A stretch of DNA of 64,000 nucleotides from Nitrospira sp. (lineage in GTDB: Bacteria > Nitrospirota > Nitrospiria > Nitrospirales > Nitrospiraceae): contig JAUYAO010000004.1 of NCBI GenBank assembly GCA_030692565.1, forward strand, positions 17,413 through 81,412. The letters are read 5' to 3'. Below the pieces are notes generated by a model, which ran no database searches, was not told where the DNA came from, and saw nothing but the letters and a program-made list of their open reading frames with translations. Position 1 is the first letter of the stretch; every line of letters begins with the position of its first letter. Below are positions 15,511 to 40,005 of this stretch, piece after piece. The position numbers and the translations under genes are program-made.

Positions 15511-18500
15511 GCAGCCTCCTGGTGATCGGGATGTCGGGCATAGTGGCGAATGGCCTCCAGCAGCGCCTTTTTCTTAATCGGTTTCGTGAGATGCGCCGTG
15601 CAGCCGGCCGAAAGACTTTTCTCGAGTTCTTCGGGGAATGCATTGGCCGTGAGCGCCAAGATCGGAGTCGGCGCGCGCCGGTGTTCGTGTTCCCATTCCC
15701 GAATCCGATGGGTGGCGACATACCCGTCCATGACGGGCATCTGCATGTCCATGAAGACGAGATCGTAGGTGCCCGCTTTGAACTTCTCCAATGCGATCGC
15801 CCCATTTTCTGCCATGTCGAGTTCATAGGCTGTGGTTTTCAAGAAGAGCGCGACGACGTCGCGATTGTCTTCGAGATCCTCGGCGAGGAGGATTCGGCCT
15901 ATCGCAGACGGTCGGGCCGGGACATGCGGTGTTTCGGCGGATGCTGGGAGCGGAGTGGTTGCCGGAGTCTGGTCGAGGGAGATCTGTGGTATTTCGGTCA
16001 GGGTACTGTGGACGGCGTTGAGCAGCGCTATGCTTCGAATGGGCTTGCTGAGATGCTGGCGAATGCCCAAGGCGTGAGCTTTCGTCGCGTTTCCGCTGCC
16101 CGCGTCGGATGTCAGCATGATGGTTGGCGTCTTGGATAATTCCGGGGATGCGCGCATCGCCTCGGCGACGGAGAAACCGTCCATTTCCGGCATGCGACAA
16201 TCGAGGATGACGAGATGAAATGGGATGCCGTCGGTGTGGGCCTTCTGCATCGCAGCCAACGCGGCAGGGCCGTCACCGGCTTCGACGATACTGGCGTCTG
16301 TTCGGGCGAGGATGTCGTGGCAGACCAGGCGATTGGTTTCATGGTCATCGACGATCAGCATGCGCGTGCCGGTCAGGCGCAGGCCGGTCCCGTCGCCGGC
16401 GGGAGGCTCTGAGGCGGCCTGCGGCAGGCGTACGGTGACATGCATGGTGCAGCCCGCTCCGAGCGTGCTTTCAGCCCAGATGCGTCCGCCCATCAGTTCA
16501 GTCAGGCGCCGGGAGATGCTGAGCCCCAGCCCGGTGCCGCCGTATTTTCTCGTCGTGGAGGAATCGACTTGCGTGAAGTTTTCGAAGATTGTATTCAGCT
16601 TGTCTTCGGGAATGCCGATGCCGCTGTCCGTCACGCTGAAATGCAGCAGGCCCTCTGGGGAGGCGTCGTGCGGCTGCACCCGCAGGATGATTTCGCCCCG
16701 CTCGGTGAATTTAATGGCATTGCCGAGGAGGTTGAGCAGGATCTGCCTCAGACGCGTGGGATCTCCCATCACGAACTGTGGGGCATCAGGCGCCACATGG
16801 GTGATGAGTTCGAGCCCTTTTGCCTGTGCCCGCACAGCCATGAGTTCGCCGGTGGTTTCGACGAGTTCCCGAAGATCGAAGGGAATAGTTTCCAGCGTCA
16901 TATGGCCGGATTCGATTTTCGATAAATCCAAAATGTCGTTAATCAGTCCCAGCAAGGCGTTCGCCGCCCGACTGAACCGATTCACAAAATTCTTTTGTTC
17001 GTCGGTGAGCGTGGTTCCCAGCAACAGATCGGCCATGCCGATGATAGAATTCATGGGGGTACGGATTTCATGGCTCATCGTGGCGAGGAACGCGCTCTTG
17101 GCTTGCGTAGCTGCCAAGGCCTGATCTCGCGCTTGCTCGAGTTCGCGATTCTGTGATTCGAGATGCTCGGCAGCGATCCGTATAGCCTCATCCGATTTTT
17201 TGCGCGCGGTGATGTCCCGGACAAATCCGGTAAAGAACCGGCTGTCTGCGAGACGGATTTCGCTGATGGCCAGTTCGATCGGAAATAATGTGCCGTCTTT
17301 CTTGACGCCGGCGACTTCCACTTCTTTCCCGATGACGTTGGCGTGACCGGTCTGGCGATAGTGTTGGAGATAGCCGTCATGGGCTGATTGGTGCGGCTCC
17401 GGCATGAGGCGGGAGATGTTGGTGTTGATGATCTCTTCGGCTGTGTAGCCGAAGATCCGTACCGCCGAGGGATTGAACGAGGTGACGGTGCCGCGCTCGT
17501 CGATGGTGATGATGCCGTCGGCCGCATGGTCCAGGATGGCCCGCATCCAAGCTGTGTGTCGCGTCAGCGCTTGCTCAGCGGTTTGTCGCTGCATCGTATT
17601 CCGATAGGACCGCAGAATCTGGCCGCAGGTTTGGAGAAACGGATTCAGATAGTCGATCAGTGAAGCGTGATAGCCCTCCGGTCGTCCGGCCATGGCCACA
17701 ACCCCGACCACTCGATCACCTTCTAACAGCGGAAGGCCGAGGAGTGTTTGAAAAGAGGGATGGCCGGAATCATTAATCAGGACTGGGTGCCCGGTGGTAA
17801 GCACCCGTTGCAAATGTTGCTGGAGGACTTTCTCCTGTTTCTCTGACGAGGGCTCTGACGTGGCAGGGAACGTATGGGCATGGATGTGGAGAGATGGGGG
17901 AGCCTCGTTGGTGAATTCCGCCTCCCCAACGATTCCGTAGGGACTCCGAGTGAGGATTTGCAGTCGGGTGAGCAGTCTGGCAAACATCTCTTCGGTCCGG
18001 ATGTCTGAGATAAACGCGTCCTGCACTTCGGAAATCGCGGATAATAATTCTTGCTGGGCCTCAGTCTGGAGTGTCACCTGTTTCAAGGCTGTGACGTCTT
18101 TCGCAATGCCGAGAAATCCTGTCAGCGCGCCGTTGGGCCCTCGCACGGCCGTGACGACCAGACTGACGGTAATGCCGTCGCCGTCTTTGCGAAGGTAGGT
18201 CCATTCCCGTTCTTCGTAGCCTCCCATGCGCGCCGCTTCAACCAGGACATCGGCACCGGCCAGCGGACGTCCGAATCGTTCAGAGAGCTGATGCCCGCGA
18301 ACGGCTATTTCCGACGGGAGGTGGAAAGAGTCGAGGGTGCGCTGTCCGATGACTTCATCGGCCTGGTAGCCGAGCAGGCGCTCGGCGCCGAAGTTAAAGA
18401 GCGTAATGAGGCCTTGCGGATTGGTGGCGATGATGCCGATTTCCGTGGCGGAATCGAGGACGGTTTGCAGACGTGCCCGAGTGTCGGCGATTTCCTCCAG

Positions 18501-30444: not shown

Positions 30445-30642
30445 ATTTCTCTTTCATCGCATCAACAACCCTCAACTTCTTGGCGTCTCTTCTGCTGGTT
30501 GCGCGGAGCGCTGCTCGGGCGCTCTGCCGCGGTCTTCCCCGTGATGCTCTGTAAGAACTCCGCCATCGGAAAGACATACGCGCACAAGGGGATGCTGAAG
30601 ACAAGCACCCCGCTTCTTATTCACCTTACAGGGAGGATTGCG

Positions 30643-31113
30643 ATGAAACGCACGGTGACGATGGGACTGTTGTCTCTGGTGATGGCAACAGGGTTGTTTG
30701 TGGCGTCGAACGGCTTGGCGGCCGATGCGCATACCACGAGCAAGTTTGAGGGCGTGAAGGCCAATACCGGCACCGCTATGCACGGCCGGCAGGGGAACAA
30801 CGATACGTTGACCTGGTCGGAGGAATTCAAGATTCCCGACACGCCCGCTCCACACTGGCAGGTGGTCGACACCAAAGGAAATGTGTTTTTGTTGCAGCGC
30901 TTGAAGATCAAGGGCGACAAAGAAAATCGAACGATCACCATCTCGTCATACATCCACGATGTGGCGAAGGTGCAGATCTACTGCGCCTGGGCCGAAGCGT
31001 TGCTCGGCGCGGCTTCATTCGCCAAGCCGATTATGACTGCGGCCGGCGAAGCCGCTTCGATGCATGCGGACAACGCCATGGGGAAGCACAACAGCATGGC
31101 GATGGGGCGGTAG
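30643..31113 (+). CDS. secreted hypothetical protein (possibly DM13-like)
   Basis: GGGAGG RBS and the ATG at 30643, with signal peptide MKRTVTMGLLSLVMATGLFVASNGLAA. The domain call is weak. Confidence 0.55.
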   Translation: MKRTVTMGLLSLVMATGLFVASNGLAADAHTTSKFEGVKANTGTAMHGRQGNNDTLTWSEEFKIPDTPAPHWQVVDTKGNVFLLQRLKIKGDKENRTITISSYIHDVAKVQIYCAWAEALLGAASFAKPIMTAAGEAASMHADNAMGKHNSMAMGR

Positions 31114-31211
31114 TGATTGGCCATCGGCTGTCAGCCCTCAGCTTTTTCGGAAGCGTGAAGCTGGCGGCCGTCGGCTGAATGCAGCGTGACGATGGTGACA
31201 AGGAGGTGTCT

Positions 31212-31691
31212 ATGCTTCGAATGGCGATGGCGGCAATCATCGGTTTCGTGGCGGCAGGTCCCGCCGCCGCGCAGCTCATGGAAAAAACCGCGCTCACGCT
31301 GGACGGGGCCAAGCAGATCGCGGCCGTCGCGGAAGCCAAGGCCAAGGCGGAAGGAGCTCGCGTGGTGATCGCAGTCGTGGATGACGGTGGCAACTTGTTG
31401 TTGCTGCAACGGCTGGATGACACGCAAGTGGCCAGCGTCAATGTCGGCATCGACAAGGCCAGAACCGCTGCGATTTATCGACGGCCCAGCAAGGTGTTTG
31501 AAGACCAAGTGAAGAACGGCCGGGTGTCGGCCTTGGCCCTGCACGGAGCCGTCGCATTGCAAGGCGGCGTGCCGATCACCGTGAAGGGGAAGGTCATCGG
31601 CGCCATCGGCGTCAGCGGAGAAACGCCCCAGCAGGATGAAGACATCGCACTCGTCGGGGCTGCTGTCGCCGCAGGATTCACCACTCAGTAG
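31212..31691 (+). CDS. secreted GlcG/HbpS-like (DUF336) protein
   Basis: AGGAGG RBS. AVVDDGGNLLLLQRLD ... GGVPI ... IGAIGVSG is the DUF336 signature. Confidence 0.8.
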   Translation: MLRMAMAAIIGFVAAGPAAAQLMEKTALTLDGAKQIAAVAEAKAKAEGARVVIAVVDDGGNLLLLQRLDDTQVASVNVGIDKARTAAIYRRPSKVFEDQVKNGRVSALALHGAVALQGGVPITVKGKVIGAIGVSGETPQQDEDIALVGAAVAAGFTTQ

Positions 31692-31766
31692 CTGACAGTC
31701 TTCAGCGATCAGCTCGGATGCATGTGCTGGATGCTGACAGCTGATGGCTGAAGAAAGGGCCGCATC

Positions 31767-32681
31767 ATGAAACATGCAATCTTATTCATCTCCGCAGTGG
31801 TCTGTGTAAGCAGTGTGTCACTGGCACAGACCGGATCGGTGTCCGATACGCGTGCGCTTACACTCGAAGGAGCTAAGACGGTCATTGCCGCAACGGTTGC
31901 GGAGGCAAGAAAGGTGAATGCCCCGGGCGGTTCCATCGCCGTCGTCGACGACGGCGGGAATCTTCTGGCGCTCGAACGGCTGGATCAGACCTTTGCTGCC
32001 AGCGCAAATATCGCGATTGGGAAGGCCCGCACGTCCGCGCTCTTTAAGAAGCCGACCAAAGTGTTCGAAGACGTCCTCAAGGGTGGACGCACCTCCATGG
32101 TCACGCTGGGCAGCGATCTCCAGAACTTCACCCCGTTGCAAGGCGGGATTCCGCTCGAATGGGAAGGCAAGGTCGTCGGCGCGATCGGGGTGAGCGGTGC
32201 GGCCAGTGCGCAACAGGATGAGGAATTGGCGATCGTCGGCGCCAAGTCGTTGGATTCAATGGAAATGGCCGGGATGGTTAATGGCCACTCGCCGTTACCC
32301 GTCACCTACATCGAGAGCCAGAGAGTCACGGCTTCTTTTGCGAAAGGCGCCGTCTTGCTCGGGGACGACGAGAGCATGATGCACGCGGCTCGGAATTACA
32401 TGGTGCACGCTAGCCACCGCGACAAGGCGGGCGTCGTCGAAATCCACGAGTTCGATACGGACATCGTCTACGTCCTCAAGGGTACGGCACAGTTGATCAC
32501 CGGCGGGACGCCGGTCGGCACGAAGACGATCGCGCCGCATGAGTTCCGAGCGCCGACTGTCACCGGCGGCGAGGCGCGGAAGCTGGTGCCGGGCGACGTG
32601 GTGATTATCCCGAATGGCGTGCCGCATTGGTTCAAAGAAGTGGAAGCGCCGTTTGACTACTACGTGGTGAAGGTGCGGTAG
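31767..32681 (+). CDS. secreted GlcG/DUF336 - cupin fusion protein
   Basis: The N-terminal half repeats the DUF336 signature (AVVDDGGNLLALERLD ... IGAIGVSG). The C-terminal roughly 130 aa looks like a cupin barrel (GDVVIIPNGVPHWF). Confidence 0.7.
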   Translation: MKHAILFISAVVCVSSVSLAQTGSVSDTRALTLEGAKTVIAATVAEARKVNAPGGSIAVVDDGGNLLALERLDQTFAASANIAIGKARTSALFKKPTKVFEDVLKGGRTSMVTLGSDLQNFTPLQGGIPLEWEGKVVGAIGVSGAASAQQDEELAIVGAKSLDSMEMAGMVNGHSPLPVTYIESQRVTASFAKGAVLLGDDESMMHAARNYMVHASHRDKAGVVEIHEFDTDIVYVLKGTAQLITGGTPVGTKTIAPHEFRAPTVTGGEARKLVPGDVVIIPNGVPHWFKEVEAPFDYYVVKVR

Positions 32682-32824
32682 ACGGAAGCTGAAAACGGTC
32701 CTCAACTTTGTTCTCGTCTTGCGACCATCCTCAACGTACCCCAGAGGGTACGCCTCCGGTGGCCGCATCGCCTGCGGCCTCGTTGGATGACCGTTTTGAG
32801 CATCCTCCGAGGACGGAGAATGAA

Positions 32825-34459
32825 ATGAATCAGCGACAAAATGCACTCGCAGTATTTGCGACTATGACTTTGGCTTTCTGTTCAGGTCTGGCCCGGGCGC
32901 AGGTTACGGGGGATGCGCCGGGGGTGCGGCCGGACGCGATCGTCGATCTGAAGACCGACGAAGGGATTGCGCTCGTGAAAGGCCAGTGGCGCTATAGCAA
33001 CGTCAAGGTAATCGAGGTCGATCACCATGGTCCGGGAGCGGATCTTGCGCCGTCCGGCCCGCCGAATCGGACGCAGGATATCGACCTCCACGCAGGCGCG
33101 GCCGACTTCGATGATTCGACATGGGAACAGATCAAACCGGTTCAACTCGAAGAACGGCGCTCTACTGGGCGGCTGTGCTTCAATTGGTATCGCACGAGTG
33201 TGACGATACCGGACAAGATTGGGTCTTTCGATCCGACCGGAGCCACGGTCGTTTTCGAAGTTGCGATCGACGATTATGCGGAGATTTGGATCGACGGAAA
33301 GCTGCCGCTAGTCTTGGGGCAGCCGGGTGGGCACCTGATCAAAGGTTTCAACGCACCGAATCGGGTCGTTCTGACGAAGGATGCGCGGCCGGGACAACGG
33401 ATTCAACTCGCGGTCTTCGGTATCAACGGCCCGCTTTCCAACCCGCCGGGGAATTTTATCTGGGTGCGGTCGGCCATGCTCGACTTTTACAAGGCCGCCC
33501 AGATCGGCCCGACACAGTTGGTGAAGACCGAGATCGTCAAGGTCGATGAGGCGCTCGATCAGATCGTTGCGCCACACACCCAGTTAGAGAAACTCGCTGG
33601 TGGCTTTCTCTTCACCGAGGGACCGGTCTGGGTCCCGGCCACCGCCAATACATCGGGATATCTCCTCTTCAGCGATCCCAACGCCAATATCATCTATCGT
33701 TGGTCACCTGAAGGGCAGGTATCCGTCTTTCGCACCAAGAGCGGCTATAGCGGATTCGACGTCGGGGAGTATCATCAGCCCGGCTCGAACGGGTTGACGC
33801 TCGACCGCCAAGGCCGCCTCGCGATCAATCAGCACGGGAATCGCCGTGTGATTCTGGTCGAACCGCGCGGCAACATCACGGTGCTCGCCGACCACTATGA
33901 CGGCCGGCGCCTCAATAGCCCCAATGACCTCGTCTATCGATCCGACGGTGCACTCTACTTCACCGATCCACCCTTCGGGCTCCCTCGCGTGTTCGACGAT
34001 CCGCACAGGGAACTCCCCTACAGCGGCGTCTATTGCGTGAAAGATGGCGTGGTGAAATTGGTGAGCACCGACCTCGATGCTCCGAACGGTCTGGCGTTCT
34101 CGCCGGACGAGAAGAGACTCTATGTCGACAACTGGAACGACGAGAAGAAGGTCATTCTGCGCTACGACGTGAATCCCGATTGCACGCTGTCCAATAGCCG
34201 GTTGTTCTTCGACATGACAAACGCACCCGGCACCGACGCCCTCGACGGTCTCAAAGTCGATCATAAGGGCAACGTCTACTCAACCGGGCCGGGCGGGCTC
34301 TGGATAATCTCCCCGGATGGCAAGCAGCTCGGGCTCATCAAAGGGCCGGAAGATCCGCACAACATGGCCTGGGGCGACGACGACGGCAAGACGCTCTATA
34401 TCACCGCGCTCACCGGCATCTATCGCATAAGGATGAATGTGTCGGGGGTGCGGCCATGA
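32825..34459 (+). CDS. secreted SMP-30/gluconolactonase/LRE-family beta-propeller with N-terminal beta-sandwich domain
   Basis: The ATG at 32825 precedes a signal peptide. The C-terminal 300 aa carry TEGPVW, NDLVYRSDGALYFTDP, PNGLAFSPDEK and NMAWGDDDGKTLYIT. Confidence 0.8.
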   Translation: MNQRQNALAVFATMTLAFCSGLARAQVTGDAPGVRPDAIVDLKTDEGIALVKGQWRYSNVKVIEVDHHGPGADLAPSGPPNRTQDIDLHAGAADFDDSTWEQIKPVQLEERRSTGRLCFNWYRTSVTIPDKIGSFDPTGATVVFEVAIDDYAEIWIDGKLPLVLGQPGGHLIKGFNAPNRVVLTKDARPGQRIQLAVFGINGPLSNPPGNFIWVRSAMLDFYKAAQIGPTQLVKTEIVKVDEALDQIVAPHTQLEKLAGGFLFTEGPVWVPATANTSGYLLFSDPNANIIYRWSPEGQVSVFRTKSGYSGFDVGEYHQPGSNGLTLDRQGRLAINQHGNRRVILVEPRGNITVLADHYDGRRLNSPNDLVYRSDGALYFTDPPFGLPRVFDDPHRELPYSGVYCVKDGVVKLVSTDLDAPNGLAFSPDEKRLYVDNWNDEKKVILRYDVNPDCTLSNSRLFFDMTNAPGTDALDGLKVDHKGNVYSTGPGGLWIISPDGKQLGLIKGPEDPHNMAWGDDDGKTLYITALTGIYRIRMNVSGVRP

Positions 34460-35463
34460 GTCACATGGCGGGCAGGGTGATTCTGTCGGGAATCTTCGTC
34501 CTGCTGTTCCATTTCACGGCATGGGCTGAGCCAGTCCCGGTCACGATTACCAGTCTCGATCCGCGTTTCGATCAGCTTGTGCCGAAGCATGCGCAGCTCG
34601 AAAAAATCGCCGATGGCTTCATCTGGGTCGAAGGGCCGGTGTGGAACAAGCAGGGCGGCTTCCTGCTGTTCTCAGACATTCCGGCCAACACGGTCTACAA
34701 ATGGACGCCGGACAAGGGCGTCACCCCGTTTCTCAAAAACAGTGGCTACAGTGGCGCGACTCCCTACGCCGGCAAGGAGCCCGGATCAAATGGCCTGACG
34801 TTCGATGCGAACGGACGCCTTGTACTCTGCCGGCATGGAGATCGGCAGATCGGACGGTTGGAAGCAGACGGCACGATCACGCCATCGGCCGAGCGCTATT
34901 ATGGCCACCAGATCAACAGCCCGAACGATCTCGTGTACAAATCGAACGGCGACCTGTACTTCACGGATCCGCCATTCGGATTGCCCGGCGTCTTCAACGA
35001 TCCGAACAAAGCCCTGGTACAAGGTGTCTATCGTGTGGCGAAGGACGGCGCTGTCACACGATTGATTACCGATATCAAGGCGCCGAATGGCATTGCATTC
35101 TCGCCGGACGAGAAGACCCTCTACGTCTCCGATGTCGATCCGAAGCGCGCAGCATGGTTGGCGTATGACGTGAGGCCGGACGGTACCGTGACAAACGGGC
35201 GTGTCTTCTTCGATGCTACTCGCTGGCGCAAGGATCCCTTCTTCGGGCCGGATGGATTCAAGGTGGACCGGTACGGCAATATCTTCGGCGCTCGGCCCGA
35301 CGGCCTTAGTGTCATGGCGCCGGACGGGACGCTCCTCGGCACCATCGAGACGGGGCGGCCGACGTCTAATGTCGCGTGGGGTGAAGACGGGCGGACCCTC
35401 TTTATCACGGGCGGGGATTCACTGTACCGGATGAGGCTTGAGACCAGAGGCGCCCATTTCTAG
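34456..35463 (+). CDS. secreted SMP-30/gluconolactonase/LRE-family protein
   Basis: Paralog of the previous propeller (VEGPVW, NDLVYKSNGDLYFTDP, PNGIAFSPDEK). The start overlaps the upstream stop (ATGA). Confidence 0.85.
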   Translation: MSHMAGRVILSGIFVLLFHFTAWAEPVPVTITSLDPRFDQLVPKHAQLEKIADGFIWVEGPVWNKQGGFLLFSDIPANTVYKWTPDKGVTPFLKNSGYSGATPYAGKEPGSNGLTFDANGRLVLCRHGDRQIGRLEADGTITPSAERYYGHQINSPNDLVYKSNGDLYFTDPPFGLPGVFNDPNKALVQGVYRVAKDGAVTRLITDIKAPNGIAFSPDEKTLYVSDVDPKRAAWLAYDVRPDGTVTNGRVFFDATRWRKDPFFGPDGFKVDRYGNIFGARPDGLSVMAPDGTLLGTIETGRPTSNVAWGEDGRTLFITGGDSLYRMRLETRGAHF

Positions 35464-35572
35464 AAATGTGTAAGAATATTCCCGCTTGTCCGACTCCCTC
35501 TATAAGGCCTGCAAGCGGTCTGCTCACACAGGTCTGCGGAAGAACGACATCAGAGGATCGAGCAACAAGGAC

Positions 35573-35863
35573 ATGATCACAGAATTGATCGCACGCCTGA
35601 CCCCTCCCTGCACCGACATCACGCGGCTTGTATCAGAGTCCATGGACCGGCCGATGGCGCTGTCCACCAGACTTGCGCTCCGGTTTCATCTCCTGATCTG
35701 TGCCGGCTGTGCCGCCTACAAGCGCCAGTTAGAACAGATTCGACAGACCTTGCGTCGATCAGCGGATGCCGCTCCCGGCGAATCGAACGGATCGACGGGT
35801 TCCTCTCCCGAAACGACCGCACGGTTGAAAGACGCCTTTCGGCAGCAGGCGAAGAAGCCCTGA
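35573..35863 (+). CDS. small zf-HC2 (putative anti-sigma) protein, orphan
   Basis: C-x23..-H-x3-C-x2-C pattern (CTDITRLVSE ... HLLICAGCAAY). Paralogous to 53209..53475. Confidence 0.55.
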   Translation: MITELIARLTPPCTDITRLVSESMDRPMALSTRLALRFHLLICAGCAAYKRQLEQIRQTLRRSADAAPGESNGSTGSSPETTARLKDAFRQQAKKP

Positions 35864-35934
35864 CAGCCTCTTTCAGTCACCAATTCCCTCGGCATTTTCC
35901 TGTAAGACCGCCGTCCTCATGCCGACTGACTTCC

Positions 35935-36411
35935 ATGCGTTGGATCAGTTGTGTACTCATTATGGTGCTTGGCGGATGTCAGACCCTCCGGGGCTCTGAC
36001 TCCTGGATCCGCACCCAGCTTCCGTCGGTGTGGCCGCTGTGGGAACGATATCAGCAATGCCGCACTGCGACGGACCCGACCCAGCTCCAAGCCGTCCTCG
36101 ATCATCTTGAGCAGGCCATGATCACGGGCGTGACGCCGCCGGCTTGGATCGCCGTGTTCGGGGTTCAGGTCTCCCGGCAACCCCTGCGAACATCGGTCGA
36201 TCCTGAAGCCTTAGCGGCGGCCTGCACGGTGCGAGCCGCGATGGTGTCCCTGGGGATCGGTCGTGATGCTGAGGCGCGGGCGCTCTATCAACGGGTGCTT
36301 GCGAGATACGGGACACAGGAGTTGGCCTATTACCGGGATCAGGCCATCGAGGCCTTGCGGCATCTTGATGCGCAGCTCGTTGCACTGCGCCGCGCCCCAC
36401 CCATCCGGTGA
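35935..36411 (+). CDS. hypothetical lipoprotein
   Basis: Lipobox VLGGC after a hydrophobic N-terminus. Confidence 0.55.
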   Translation: MRWISCVLIMVLGGCQTLRGSDSWIRTQLPSVWPLWERYQQCRTATDPTQLQAVLDHLEQAMITGVTPPAWIAVFGVQVSRQPLRTSVDPEALAAACTVRAAMVSLGIGRDAEARALYQRVLARYGTQELAYYRDQAIEALRHLDAQLVALRRAPPIR

Positions 36412-36464
36412 TGTAAGAACGTTGAGCCGTGCTCGACTGATCGGCAGGGAAGCGGAGGGAGCCC

Positions 36465-36686
36465 ATGAACGCGACAATCTATTGGACCAGGCACAAGCTT
36501 CAGCAGGGAACCCGCGAACTCCGCTGGGCCGCCAAACTCTGGTGGTTCAAACAGGAGATCGACTTTCTCGGCTGGCGCTGGTGGATGGAATCGCACCTGC
36601 CCGACGCCGCTGTTCCAGCGACCTCTCATCTCACCGCGCAAGAAGGCACCCATGCGATGCAGCCACTGCCACTCCTTCATGGTTAA
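36465..36686 (+). CDS. small Trp-rich hypothetical protein
   Basis: GGAGGGAG RBS 3 nt before the ATG. G/C-rich third codon positions by eye. 73 aa with 8 Trp. Confidence 0.4.
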   Translation: MNATIYWTRHKLQQGTRELRWAAKLWWFKQEIDFLGWRWWMESHLPDAAVPATSHLTAQEGTHAMQPLPLLHG

Positions 36687-36909
36687 GGATCATCTGTACG
36701 ATCTGCTCGAAAACGACGGGCAGGTCTATGTCGGCGGGTGGCGTTGGGGCTATCGTTGTGCCGGATGCAGCCGGGTCGTCGAGTCCGGCGAGGATCAGGA
36801 TGAAACTATCGAGGGGCCGGTGTCGGTCGGTTCGGCCGCGCCGGACTCGGCGGCGACCGCCTCGGCCAGCGCGGCGTCTCCGTCTATACCGTTGTTTCGC
36901 ATGTTCTAA
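36652..36909 (+). CDS. small 4-Cys zinc-ribbon-like protein (paralog A)
   Basis: MRCSHC...WGYRCAGC. GAAGG lies upstream of the ATG. G/C-rich third positions. Confidence 0.5.
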   Translation: MRCSHCHSFMVKDHLYDLLENDGQVYVGGWRWGYRCAGCSRVVESGEDQDETIEGPVSVGSAAPDSAATASASAASPSIPLFRMF

Positions 36910-36926
36910 GCCAAGGAGTGTCAGCC

Positions 36927-37184
36927 ATGCTTTGTATGATCTGTTGCCATATCATGCTCAGCTGCAGCAGCCAGACGGTGGAGGACGAGAGGGGCTCGTT
37001 ACTCGTCACCCGGTGGAGCTGTCCCGGTTGCGGACGGTGCGAGGAAGAAATCTGGGTCAGTCGCCACTACCAGGGCGCCCGGCCTCGCCGGCTTCGCTAC
37101 GCGGTCAACGCCGCAGTGGCCCTTACCATTCCGACGCGCTCGCGCGCCGGACGAATATCTGTGTCCCATGCGTCAGTGGGCTGA
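36927..37184 (+). CDS. small 4-Cys zinc-ribbon-like protein (paralog B)
   Basis: AAGGAG RBS. MLCMIC...RWSCPGCGRC has the same C-x2-C ... W-x-C-x-G-C layout as paralog A. The 3' end overlaps the MIP start. Confidence 0.5.
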   Translation: MLCMICCHIMLSCSSQTVEDERGSLLVTRWSCPGCGRCEEEIWVSRHYQGARPRRLRYAVNAAVALTIPTRSRAGRISVSHASVG

Positions 37185-38001
37185 CCGCGCGCGCGGTCAT
37201 TGGCCGGAGTATCTGATGGAAGCGGCCGGTCTCGGCCTCTTCATGATCTCCGCCGCGGTGGTCACGACTCTGCTGGAGTATCCCGGCTCTCCGTTGCACG
37301 CCTCGCTGCCCGATCCTGCCACGCGCCGTGCGCTCACCGGCGTGGCGATGGGGCTCACCGCCATCGGTATCATCTATTCACCGTGGGGCAAACAATCCGG
37401 CGCCCATTTGAATCCGGCGGTGACGCTCACGTTTTATCGATTGGGCAAGATCGACGGGGTGGATGCAGTCGGGTATGTACTCGCGCAAGCAGCCGGCGGG
37501 CTCATCGGACTCCTTGCGGCTAGGGCCGGAATCGGCATGGCCCTCGCACATCCGGCGGTCAACTATGTAGTAACCGTGCCGGGCGAAGCGGGAATCGCCA
37601 CGGCTTTTCTGGCAGAGGCCGCCATCTCCTTTGGTCTGATGCTGACCGTCTTGTTCCTGTCGAACCACAGAACGCTTGCGCCGGTCACCGGTCTTGTAGC
37701 CGGTGGGCTTGTCGCGGCCTATATCGGAATCGAGGCGCCACTTTCCGGTATGAGCATGAATCCGGCCAGGACGCTGGCCTCGGCGATTCCGGCTCATGTG
37801 TGGACGGCATTCTGGCTGTATCTCACGGCTCCGATGGGGGGGATGTTGCTTGCGGCTGAATTCTATCTGCGTGCGAAGGGGCTCAGGCAGATCTATTGCG
37901 CGAAACTGCATCATCATAACCGGGCGCGCTGCATTTTCCGCTGCCGCTATGGTGAGCTGCTCGAGCGGGGAACAGCGAGGCCGTTGCCTGCTGATCGATA
38001 A
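37168..38001 (+). CDS. MIP-family channel (aquaporin/glycerol-facilitator-like) with Cys/His-rich C-terminal tail
   Basis: Two NPA boxes (HLNPAVT, MNPART) and six TM segments. Tail: CAKLHHHNRARCIFRC. Confidence 0.85.
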   Translation: MRQWADRARGHWPEYLMEAAGLGLFMISAAVVTTLLEYPGSPLHASLPDPATRRALTGVAMGLTAIGIIYSPWGKQSGAHLNPAVTLTFYRLGKIDGVDAVGYVLAQAAGGLIGLLAARAGIGMALAHPAVNYVVTVPGEAGIATAFLAEAAISFGLMLTVLFLSNHRTLAPVTGLVAGGLVAAYIGIEAPLSGMSMNPARTLASAIPAHVWTAFWLYLTAPMGGMLLAAEFYLRAKGLRQIYCAKLHHHNRARCIFRCRYGELLERGTARPLPADR

Positions 38002-38003
38002 GA

Positions 38004-38669
38004 CTATTGTCCCCCGTGGGGCGACTGCCGGTTGCTGCTGCTCTGCAGATCCATTTCCAAGACGACGGGGCCGTTGGGACTCTTCGGATCCACGCGATGC
38101 GGCATCTGATCGACCGCCAATTTGCTGAGGGGAACGGCGACGATATGTGGGGCCTTCTCGGTGGGGTTGGAGTAGAGCGCCAGCCGGATATTTTTAGGGC
38201 GCAGTTGTGGGGTCAGTAACGGCTTCAAGTCCGCGCTGGCGAATCCCACCACCAAGGCGCTGCCGTCGGCCAATTTATGGATCTCGTAAGCATTGGCGGC
38301 AGGCGCCGCACGCTCTAACACCATGTCCGGACTCTGTGAGACCAAGGCCAACCCGAGTCCTTGCTGAGGGACGAACCCGAAGCTGCCGACCGGCGCCACG
38401 GAGTAGCGGGTCTGCGGGAGCTCGGCGCCGAGCTCCACCACCCCGGTCTTGAGCCGCAACTGCCGGCGCAAGTCGGCTTCAGTCCCCTGGGCATCGAGAA
38501 ACACCGCGGCCGGGGCCGCCTTCTGGGACGGCAACACCTCCATCTTGCCGCTATTCCCACCGCGCGGCGCGGCATGCAGGGAAGCAGGCAGGAGGCTCAG
38601 GAGTAACAGGCTCAATAGCGCATGAGTCAAGACGCGGCGGTCGGTGCGAAGGGGAGGTCGGGATGACAT
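38004..38669 (-). CDS. secreted hypothetical protein
   Basis: Signal peptide LLSLLLLSLLPASLHA. No recognisable domain. Confidence 0.5.
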   Translation of the reverse strand: MSSRPPLRTDRRVLTHALLSLLLLSLLPASLHAAPRGGNSGKMEVLPSQKAAPAAVFLDAQGTEADLRRQLRLKTGVVELGAELPQTRYSVAPVGSFGFVPQQGLGLALVSQSPDMVLERAAPAANAYEIHKLADGSALVVGFASADLKPLLTPQLRPKNIRLALYSNPTEKAPHIVAVPLSKLAVDQMPHRVDPKSPNGPVVLEMDLQSSSNRQSPHGGQ

Positions 38670-38751
38670 GGTCGTCAGGTGCTCCGGTAGTAAAGTGTGA
38701 GACTCATCTTTATCAAGTCCGGCCTGTCCGGCGCAATGGGCATCAGTCCGA

Positions 38752-39378
38752 TTATCGTTCCAGTCTGCGGGGCGGCATTATTCTGGCCGGTGAGGCGCAG
38801 GGGTTCGTCGTAGGATCGTGGAGGGCTACGTCGGCGACCCCGTGCCGCGCATCGAGTTGAATCAGACAACAGTCATGCAGCAGGGCCTTCAGCTGTCGAC
38901 GGCCCCGTTGTACCCGTGACTTCATGCCGGAGAGGGAGAGGCCCAGCTTGGTGGCGGCGACCTGTTGGGTGAGCCCGTCTAGTTCGACAAGCCTCAGGGC
39001 GTCCCGGTATTCCGGCGCCAGCTGATCCACCATGGGGCGGAGGCAGTTCGCGAGCTGGATGCGAGGCTCGTCTCGCTCCTCCGTTGGCTCTCCCGCCGTC
39101 AGCAGAGCTTCAACGTCCGTCGCCAGCCCTGCCGGGAGTTCTCGATGCCGGTGTGAAGTCCGGTAATAATCGATAACCACATGGCGCGTGACGGTGAAGA
39201 TCCAGGAGACCAGGCGGCGGGGATCCTGCACCTGGTCGATCTTGTCGTGGATCTTCAGAAAGACTTCCTGGAGTAGATCGTCCACCGCCGCATCGTCTGC
39301 GACTCGTTTGGCGATGAAGGCGCGCAGTCGCCCGCGCACCTCCATCCAGACGTCTTGTCTATTCTGTGTCATGGTCAT
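38752..39378 (-). CDS. ECF sigma factor, SigZ-like, with Cys-containing C-terminal extension
   Basis: Sigma-2 (LLQEVFLKIHDKI ... WIFTVTRHVVIDYYR) and sigma-4 (ALRLVELDGLTQQVAATKLGLSLSGMKSRVQRGR), then HDCCLIQLDARHG. GGAGAAA precedes the ATG at 39378. Confidence 0.8.
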   Translation of the reverse strand: MTMTQNRQDVWMEVRGRLRAFIAKRVADDAAVDDLLQEVFLKIHDKIDQVQDPRRLVSWIFTVTRHVVIDYYRTSHRHRELPAGLATDVEALLTAGEPTEERDEPRIQLANCLRPMVDQLAPEYRDALRLVELDGLTQQVAATKLGLSLSGMKSRVQRGRRQLKALLHDCCLIQLDARHGVADVALHDPTTNPCASPARIMPPRRLER

Positions 39379-39412
39379 TTCTCCGAACGGAGCCCTTCTA
39401 CGGTACCGTGCA

Positions 39413-39858
39413 TCAAGACGCTGCGCAAGGTGCCGCTCGGGTCGCGCCGGAATGGGCCGGGACGCAGCAGCCTGTCTGGCTGAGCGGTCCGTCGACGGCC
39501 AATTGCTCGTGCACGAGGAAGACCTCCCAGGCATTCCCGTCGGGATCCGTGAACCAGAGCTTGTCCTGTCTGGCAAAGCAGCAGGATGTATTTTCTTCGA
39601 CGCGCTCCGCACGCCGGCGGTCTGCAACCGCGATTTCCACTGGGCGATCTCTTCGAGCGAATCCACCTCGATGCCGAGATGGTCGACCGAACTGATTCTG
39701 CCCGTTGACGAGACCAGCGACAAATTCAGCGCCGGGGTTGTCCGGTCGAACTTGGCATAGTCGTCTGTCTGTTTCTGCGGCGACACGCCGAACACCTTCC
39801 GGTAGAACTCGACCGATGCCGGGACATGGCGGACATTGAGGGAAATGTGTGGCCTCAT
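39413..39858 (-). pseudogene. ArsI/CadI-family VOC metalloenzyme, frame broken near 39610
   Basis: The N-terminal part (MRPHISLNVRHVPASVEFYRKVFG ... HLGIEVDS ... RLQTAGV) is in one frame. The C-terminal part (ERVEENTSCCFARQDKLWFTDPDGNAWEVFLV) is in the frame one base back. GGAGG RBS at the start. Confidence 0.7.
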
Positions 39859-40005
39859 AAGAACCTCCTGGGTGAGCGGCAGGAGAGAAGTCACCTGCCT
39901 ATCCCTAGAGACGGAGCATCGGGGAAAAGGACGCAACGGGGAGCGGGCTGGCAGTGGAAAAACAGGGGGCGCGATCCAACAGACAAACTGAGGAAACGGC
40001 AGGGA

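Follow-up and report, generated by a model that had tools for sequence, protein, structure and literature searches.

Three small genes, which we refer to as open reading frames (ORFs) 1 to 3, precede a channel gene of the major intrinsic protein (MIP) family in a Nitrospira sp. and are conserved under purifying selection, and two of them, ORF1 and the gene for the ORF3-type zinc ribbon, occur almost only beside this channel gene. The genes lie in a 64,000-nucleotide (nt) stretch of DNA, hereafter the window, that spans positions 17,413 to 81,412 of the forward strand of GenBank contig JAUYAO010000004.1 (assembly GCA_030692565.1; contig C21 of the 4.17 Mb host genome). They define three uncharacterised small-protein families, two of which are all but confined to a single channel locus, while one overlaps the start codon of the channel. 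To our knowledge, bacterial MIP channels have been treated as stand-alone proteins and no dedicated protein partner has been described for them; our literature search on an association between micro-proteins and MIP channels found nothing. The locus presents a concrete case of possible micro-protein channel control in Nitrospira, which are the main oxidisers of nitrite in soils and wastewater plants.

Conservation of the three small genes and their link to the channel gene

An original prediction, made from the sequence alone, held that the three small ORFs are genes and that a competing 317-amino-acid (aa) ORF at 36263..37216 is an off-frame artefact. We are highly confident that the three are real genes. 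Under a codon model that was trained on 1040 long ORFs from the host genome, each had its best log-likelihood ratio (LLR) in its own frame (ORF1 +6.3, ORF2 +7.1, ORF3 +1.0), next to values of +46.9 for the MIP gene and +22.7 for the lipoprotein gene that heads the cluster. Orthologues occur in the same order in many Nitrospiraceae genera, and pairwise ratios of nonsynonymous to synonymous substitution rates (dN/dS) range from 0.08 to 0.58 over ORF1 and both ribbon types (ORF1, 0.15-0.58; ORF3, 0.08-0.54), so that conservation at the protein level, the absence of which would have spoken against the original prediction, is present. Profiles iterated from the window proteins over the loci of relatives give domain E-values of 1e-14 to 1e-28 for the small proteins, and public records annotate the same ORFs, with the same starts, as 'hypothetical protein'. 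That the small ORFs are open only by chance in GC-rich DNA, with the 317-aa frame as the true gene, is extremely improbable. The long frame is open throughout, and its product is ~50% identical to the sequence of genome G006, where the DNA is 76% identical. However, its codon LLR is -32, whereas that of all three small ORFs is positive; it is kept only in the closest relative, while the small proteins are found in many genera; and a family scan of its product gave no match. Codon statistics and the lack of wider conservation effectively refute this frame as a gene, in keeping with its original dismissal.

The link to the channel was followed through related genomes. All counts given here derive from samples of related genomes that are not independent of each other, and some of the contigs are short. 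Two unpublished genomes, G093 (L016/L065) and G116 (L010, L058, L171), enter the ORF3-type and ORF2-type alignments (A1 and A4) and the tallies, and a third, G046, enters only the ribbon tallies over 151 genomes; dropping all three shifts the counts by at most 2 loci and changes no conclusion. In many Nitrospiraceae genera, the recurrent order is lipoprotein gene, ORF1, an optional ORF2-type ribbon gene, ORF3-type ribbon gene and MIP gene. At 36 non-redundant MIP loci, at least one ribbon gene is found upstream on the same strand in 22, ORF1 in 20, and the lipoprotein gene in 23, and independent public Nitrospiraceae contigs display the same pattern. ORF1 is a single-copy gene present in 20 of 151 genomes of the family, and it adjoins the MIP gene in 18 of these 20. 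Among the best 25 matches to the whole ORF3-type profile, 24 adjoin a MIP gene on the same contig; genome G092 has its MIP gene on another contig. The proposed link to the channel gene is therefore real, and specific for ORF1 and the ORF3-type ribbon, and the synteny is conserved in many Nitrospiraceae genera. In G032, which belongs to another family, an ORF3-type ribbon gene lies just downstream of the MIP gene and a ribbon gene of the general type upstream; adjacency is thus kept despite the changed order, which argues against a mere upstream leader ORF. Accessory genes have frequently been lost in Nitrospiraceae. In G006, which belongs to the same genus as the host, about 99 bp (L002 1401-1501) replace ORF2, ORF3 and the MIP gene (window 36670-38003); this genome retains the lipoprotein gene, an orthologue of ORF1 with 54% identity, and the downstream gene in convergent orientation.

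The features of the cluster, all on the forward strand, are as follows.

35573..35863 (+): gene for a small zf-HC2 (anti-sigma-like) protein, upstream of the lipoprotein gene; Pfam zf-HC2, NCBIfam antisigmaE
35935..36411 (+): lipoprotein gene, 158 aa, signal peptide and LGGC lipobox; first gene of the module
36454..36461 (+): Shine-Dalgarno sequence of ORF1, GGAGGGAG, read from the sequence
36465..36686 (+): ORF1, 73 aa, Trp-rich
36642-36646 (+): Shine-Dalgarno sequence of ORF2, GAAGG, read from the sequence
36652..36686 (+): overlap of the ORF1 end and the ORF2 start, 35 nt
36652..36909 (+): ORF2, 85 aa, four-Cys zinc-ribbon micro-protein, distal type
36913..36918 (+): Shine-Dalgarno sequence of ORF3, AAGGAG, 8 nt before the ATG at 36927
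36927..37184 (+): ORF3, 85 aa, four-Cys zinc-ribbon micro-protein, MIP-proximal type
37168..37184 (+): overlap of the ORF3 stop and the MIP start, 17 nt
37168..38001 (+): MIP-family channel gene, 277 aa, two NPA boxes; Cys/His-rich cytoplasmic tail encoded by 37891-38001

The ORF list and the sequence agree with the coordinates originally given for the three ORFs, both predicted overlaps are exact, and the Shine-Dalgarno sequence assigned to each ORF is read where it had been described. ORF1 orthologues carry GAGGTG or GGAGG 6-9 nt ahead of the ATG. For ORF3, the mechanical ORF list gives a GTG start at 36918; the ATG at 36927 is most likely the true start, as originally chosen (MLC...), because the M-x-C start is conserved in all orthologues and fits the spacing of the Shine-Dalgarno sequence. 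ORF1 and the ORF2-type gene overlap by 17-20 nt in L045, L047, L050 and L053, and by 17-35 nt when the window is included. At 13 of the 19 loci with a proximal ribbon, the ATG of the MIP gene precedes the end of the ribbon stop codon by exactly 17 nt, a geometry that is consistent with the translational coupling suggested from the overlaps in the original prediction. In many relatives, the coding sequence of the ribbon includes a GAGG-like motif that precedes the MIP start by 10-13 nt; this motif is absent in the window. Neither a sigma-70 consensus promoter nor a terminator was found inside the cluster, and an Rfam covariance-model scan of 35400-38800 with E up to 1 yielded no match to a riboswitch or leader.

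Predicted folds and relatives of the small proteins

The predicted fold of ORF3 is a zinc ribbon with four Cys and one additional strand. The AlphaFold2 model (predicted local distance difference test, pLDDT, of 85-96 over residues 1-60) places the ribbon on an antiparallel sheet (strands 11-20, 23-31, 38-44 and 54-60), to which the RxRY segment adds the extra strand, followed by a disordered tail. The two CxxC pairs, which would supply the four metal ligands of a generic zinc-ribbon fold, sit in the model as knuckles on beta-hairpins of the small sheet. C3, C6, C32 and C35 are invariant among the 22 sequences of alignment A1, and likewise in a set of 30; in A1, one Met is invariant too, and an EE pair and the Tyr of the RxRY motif are nearly so. 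ORF2-type proteins have the same four Cys positions and a WRWxxRC insert (alignment A4), and those linked to a MIP gene end in F-(R/Q)-M-F (FRMF in the window). Orthologues of ORF2 occupy the same position in L045, L047, L050, L053, L066, L076 and L079. The two proteins had been recognised as paralogues with a shared layout of Cys pairs; both CxxC pairs are indeed present in each, and profiles iterated from either protein converge on the same matches.

The ribbon proteins, of 60-100 aa with a disordered tail, form a large group. Against 1.84 billion representative proteins, the A1 profile retrieved 597 at E <= 1e-3 and 63 at E <= 1e-10, and the best 150 matches listed are all under 140 aa except one (244 aa). 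Ribbon matches occur in 144 of the 151 family genomes, with up to 12 copies each, and ORF2 is a member of this wider, multi-copy Nitrospiraceae family; a word-based homologue search with ORF2 gave only 4 matches. One conserved paralogue has an NFACT-family gene on one side and an unknown 400-aa gene on the other, and others are found upstream of genes with DpnII/MboI-type domains and of an NTPase gene. Ribbon paralogues that are not linked to a MIP gene very often end in two alanines (LAA, IAA, SAA or QAA; L015, L019, L020, L022, L024, L028, L029, L031, L036 and others), which may recall ssrA-type degradation tags. At L049 (1227-1496, G071), the sole ribbon is chimera-like, with an ORF2-type N-terminal half (WRW insert) and an ORF3-type C-terminal half (EEIW, RxRY), and looks as if a deletion had fused two paralogues. 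The ORF2-type ribbon of L052 (2649-2741, G174) is only 31 residues long and probably a decaying copy.

ORF1, by comparison of 20 orthologues (alignment A2), has an invariant Trp at position 26; a recount gives 7 Trp residues in the window protein and not the 8 originally reported. The protein is predicted to form one long alpha-helix (residues 3-44, pLDDT up to 96) that leads into a disordered tail. Conserved hydrophobic positions 21, 25, 28, 32, 35 and 39, as read from the alignment, follow a spacing of 3-4 residues that resembles a coiled-coil seam, and a second conserved face would consist of Trp and Phe.

That none of the three proteins belongs to a described family, as had been supposed, is borne out by scans against Pfam, NCBIfam and PADLOC, in which the three proteins and 30 family members gave only scattered sub-threshold zinc-finger matches. 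PADLOC models did not match ORF1-3, the lipoprotein or two ribbon paralogues, and the lipoprotein belongs to no family in these collections, its only Pfam matches being sub-threshold TPR ones. In the ESM Atlas, ORF1 found nothing and ORF3 only unnamed ribbon clusters. Foldseek and VIA searches with the ORF3 model returned only generic ribbon or beta-sheet matches, all below Z 6.5. The best superpositions are on the ribbons of NrdR and ZPR1 (7p37, 9fzf, 2qkd), with root-mean-square deviations of 1.6-2.1 A over 44-46 residues and 24-30% identity (NrdR: 1.6 A over 44 residues, 30% identity, Z 5.3; ZPR1 similar). The likeness lies in a small antiparallel sheet that carries two CxxC knuckles with a separation of about 25 residues. 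However, an hhalign comparison of A1 with the genome's own NrdR (a TIGR00244 match) gave a probability of 1%, NCBIfam returned no NrdR match, and Pfam finds neither an ATP-cone nor another domain attached to the ORF3-type ribbon. The latter also differs from both NrdR and ZPR1 by an extension of its own, in which EE and RxRY are conserved and which adds a fifth strand, and by an acidic rather than basic core; the NrdR ribbon binds DNA, and in this respect the acidic core is unlike DNA-binding ribbons. A resemblance to MqsA/YgiT-type zinc fingers was rejected, given that no Pfam or NCBIfam match at E up to 1, no helix-turn-helix and no second domain was found.

Possible roles of the small proteins beside the channel

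The lipoprotein gene, ORF1, ORF2 and ORF3 constitute a Nitrospiraceae-specific accessory module that heads an operon with a widely conserved MIP core. Based on synteny, specificity, the fixed 17-nt overlap, the adjacency in G032, purifying selection, the distribution of charge and the MIP tree, we tentatively propose that the small proteins may be lineage-specific cytoplasmic partners of the channel, to which we give somewhat less than an even chance. Median net charges are -2 for the core of the ORF3-type ribbon, which is acidic, and +5 for its basic tail; the tail of the MIP protein, also basic, has a charge of +7. In a quick maximum-likelihood tree of MIP proteins, all channels with accessory genes fall into one clade of 41 rows (Shimodaira-Hasegawa-like approximate likelihood ratio test, 86), and rows without accessory genes are nested inside this clade, which fits one gain and repeated secondary loss. 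In the mechanism that we envisage, the overlap would couple translation, such that ribbon and channel are made together. The ORF3-type ribbon, probably along with the ORF1 helix and the ORF2 ribbon, would then bind the cytoplasmic face of the channel, where the basic Cys/His tail, facing the acidic core of the ribbon, is a candidate docking site. Once bound, the small proteins might adjust the gating, the stability or the assembly of the channel, and could act as a zinc-thiolate redox switch in doing so. A more specific version, in which the ORF3 ribbon, the ORF1 helix and the ORF2 ribbon are dedicated subunits on the MIP tetramer that gate or stabilise it according to thiol/zinc redox state, is rather unlikely in our estimate; if true, aquaporin-family channels of prokaryotes would have their first described system of accessory subunits.

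Several observations weigh against a partnership with the channel. In other phyla, the channel functions in the absence of these genes: none of 57 loci has a ribbon gene, ORF1 or the lipoprotein gene within 2.5 kb of the MIP gene, and 7 of the 36 MIP loci counted above lack all three upstream. A second MIP gene of the same genome, on contig C40, encodes a protein outside the 41-row clade and has no accessory genes. No change specific to the clade was found in the N-terminus, the Cys/His tail or any other cytoplasmic segment of the MIP protein where ribbons are present; the only diagnostic column is residue 32, which by estimated topology lies in the first membrane helix. Relatives of ORF2 and other ribbon paralogues reside upstream of unrelated genes, and the ribbon family as a whole is thus not channel-specific. 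Finally, a search for ribbon-MIP fusions or longer fused forms found none, which is weak evidence.

The main alternative holds that the ribbons, and perhaps ORF1, are regulators of the operon that bind DNA, RNA or RNA polymerase, together with the zf-HC2 protein, and do not touch the channel. Members of the multi-copy ribbon superfamily usually directly precede larger genes of diverse kinds, in the same orientation; the DNA-binding ribbon of NrdR is among the closest solved ones; several genera have conserved a zf-HC2 gene upstream; and in most relatives the long run of co-oriented genes after the MIP gene would need regulation. Yet the acidic ribbon core, the lack of a helix-turn-helix or other nucleic-acid-binding domain and the result of the NrdR profile comparison all speak against this role, and both the fixed overlap with the start codon of the target and the adjacency on the other side of the MIP gene in G032 would be unusual for a transcription factor. 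We consider it improbable, if worth serious attention. The small proteins could also be assembly factors or metallochaperones that transiently give zinc to the Cys/His tail of the channel or hold this tail during membrane insertion, and the four invariant Cys of the ribbon, the co-translation implied by the 17-nt overlap and the C, HH(H), C, C motif of the MIP tail, conserved in all loci with or without ribbons, would all suit such a function. In many Nitrospiraceae and throughout the other phyla sampled, the same tail occurs on channels without ribbons, which implies that a dedicated chaperone is not required and renders this explanation quite unlikely. Much the same standing, if a trifle better, goes to the view that the genes are real and functionally unrelated to the channel, forming a lineage-specific cassette that hitch-hikes upstream of it. 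Accessory genes have been lost piecemeal, and G006 retains the lipoprotein gene and ORF1 after losing ORF2, ORF3 and the MIP gene; against this stand the near absence of ORF1 and ORF3-type genes away from this MIP gene and an overlap geometry that is conserved across genera.

A cytoplasmic partnership of the small proteins with the channel would have parallels in other systems. KdpF, AcrZ, MgtS and SgrT are small accessory proteins of bacterial membrane transporters. Each of these micro-proteins, similar to ORF1-3, is encoded alongside one transport protein or acts on it, and is dispensable for its basic activity. In contrast, they are mostly single transmembrane helices and none is a cytoplasmic zinc ribbon, and for the proteins described here the interaction is only inferred; we know of no accessory protein of this kind for a MIP channel. 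In eukaryotes, calmodulin is a cytoplasmic partner that gates the aquaporin AQP0 via its C-terminal tail, and the proposed docking of a soluble protein on a conserved cytoplasmic MIP tail would resemble this arrangement, although the proteins are unrelated and from another domain of life, and the tail considered here is equally conserved where ribbons are absent. ZAS anti-sigma factors (zf-HC2, RsrA type) are likewise small cytoplasmic Cys-zinc proteins that function as zinc-thiolate redox switches, and a zf-HC2 gene is located just upstream in the window and in several genera. The ribbons, however, lack the H-x3-C-x2-C signature and do not match Pfam zf-HC2.

The channel subtype and its genomic neighbourhood

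The MIP gene matches Pfam PF00230 with an E-value of 5.8e-25 (88.8 bits against a cut-off of 25), and alignment to AqpM places its NPA boxes at residues 82-84 and 198-200. AqpM and NIP2-1 are the nearest solved relatives, at low identity, and scores stay below the equivalog cut-offs for AqpZ, GlpF and AqpM (aquaporin Z, 59 bits against 256; TIGR00861, 113 against 171). The subtype is characterised by the motif HWPEYLME in its N-terminal part; its C-terminal tail has one Cys, two or three adjacent His residues and a further two Cys. Scanning genome contigs with the MIP protein recovered loci from other phyla, among them Cyanobacteria, NC10, Acidobacteriota, Planctomycetia, Bacillota and Myxococcota, with channels of this subtype that are 55-73% identical. 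The small genes are lineage-specific, accompanying the MIP gene in Nitrospiraceae and not in the other phyla sampled. A small ORF with two CxxC pairs was found upstream of the MIP gene at 1 of 55 loci from other phyla: at L111, a 91-aa ORF about 676 nt upstream has an internal M-R-C-P-D-C start; it was undetected by the profiles and may be a chance occurrence. The second MIP gene of the host genome (C40 644029-644808, L007) is of the same subtype, with 63% identity, and groups with sequences from Nostoc, KSB1 and an unclassified Nitrospirae (L129); given its position outside the Nitrospiraceae clade, it may derive from a separate acquisition.

In most Nitrospiraceae, the MIP gene is followed by DM13-like, GlcG/HbpS-like, HbpS-cupin fusion and SMP-30-type propeller genes. 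In the window, these genes (30499-35463) are placed upstream of the block of zf-HC2 gene, lipoprotein gene and ORF1, an order that is permuted relative to L045-L083. The lipoprotein gene has a homologue of the zf-HC2 gene upstream of it in L041, L043, L044, L056, L074 and L081, and L087 has such a homologue upstream of the MIP gene and no lipoprotein gene. Recurrent neighbours of the MIP gene in other phyla (L093-L151) encode GMC oxidoreductases, glyoxalase-family proteins, HbpS-cupin fusions, Spondin_N and DM13 proteins, SDR proteins and glucose-dehydrogenase-type proteins. Judged by these neighbours, the channel belongs to an old, unexplained periplasmic redox neighbourhood that is conserved across phyla, and this setting, together with the conserved Cys/His tail, flags the MIP subtype as one of interest. 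Further downstream in the window, a 394-aa ORF on the reverse strand (38752-39936) comprises a glyoxalase-family N-terminal part and a complete ECF-type (extracytoplasmic function) sigma factor, a composition that agrees with the frame break between two genes proposed there in the original prediction.
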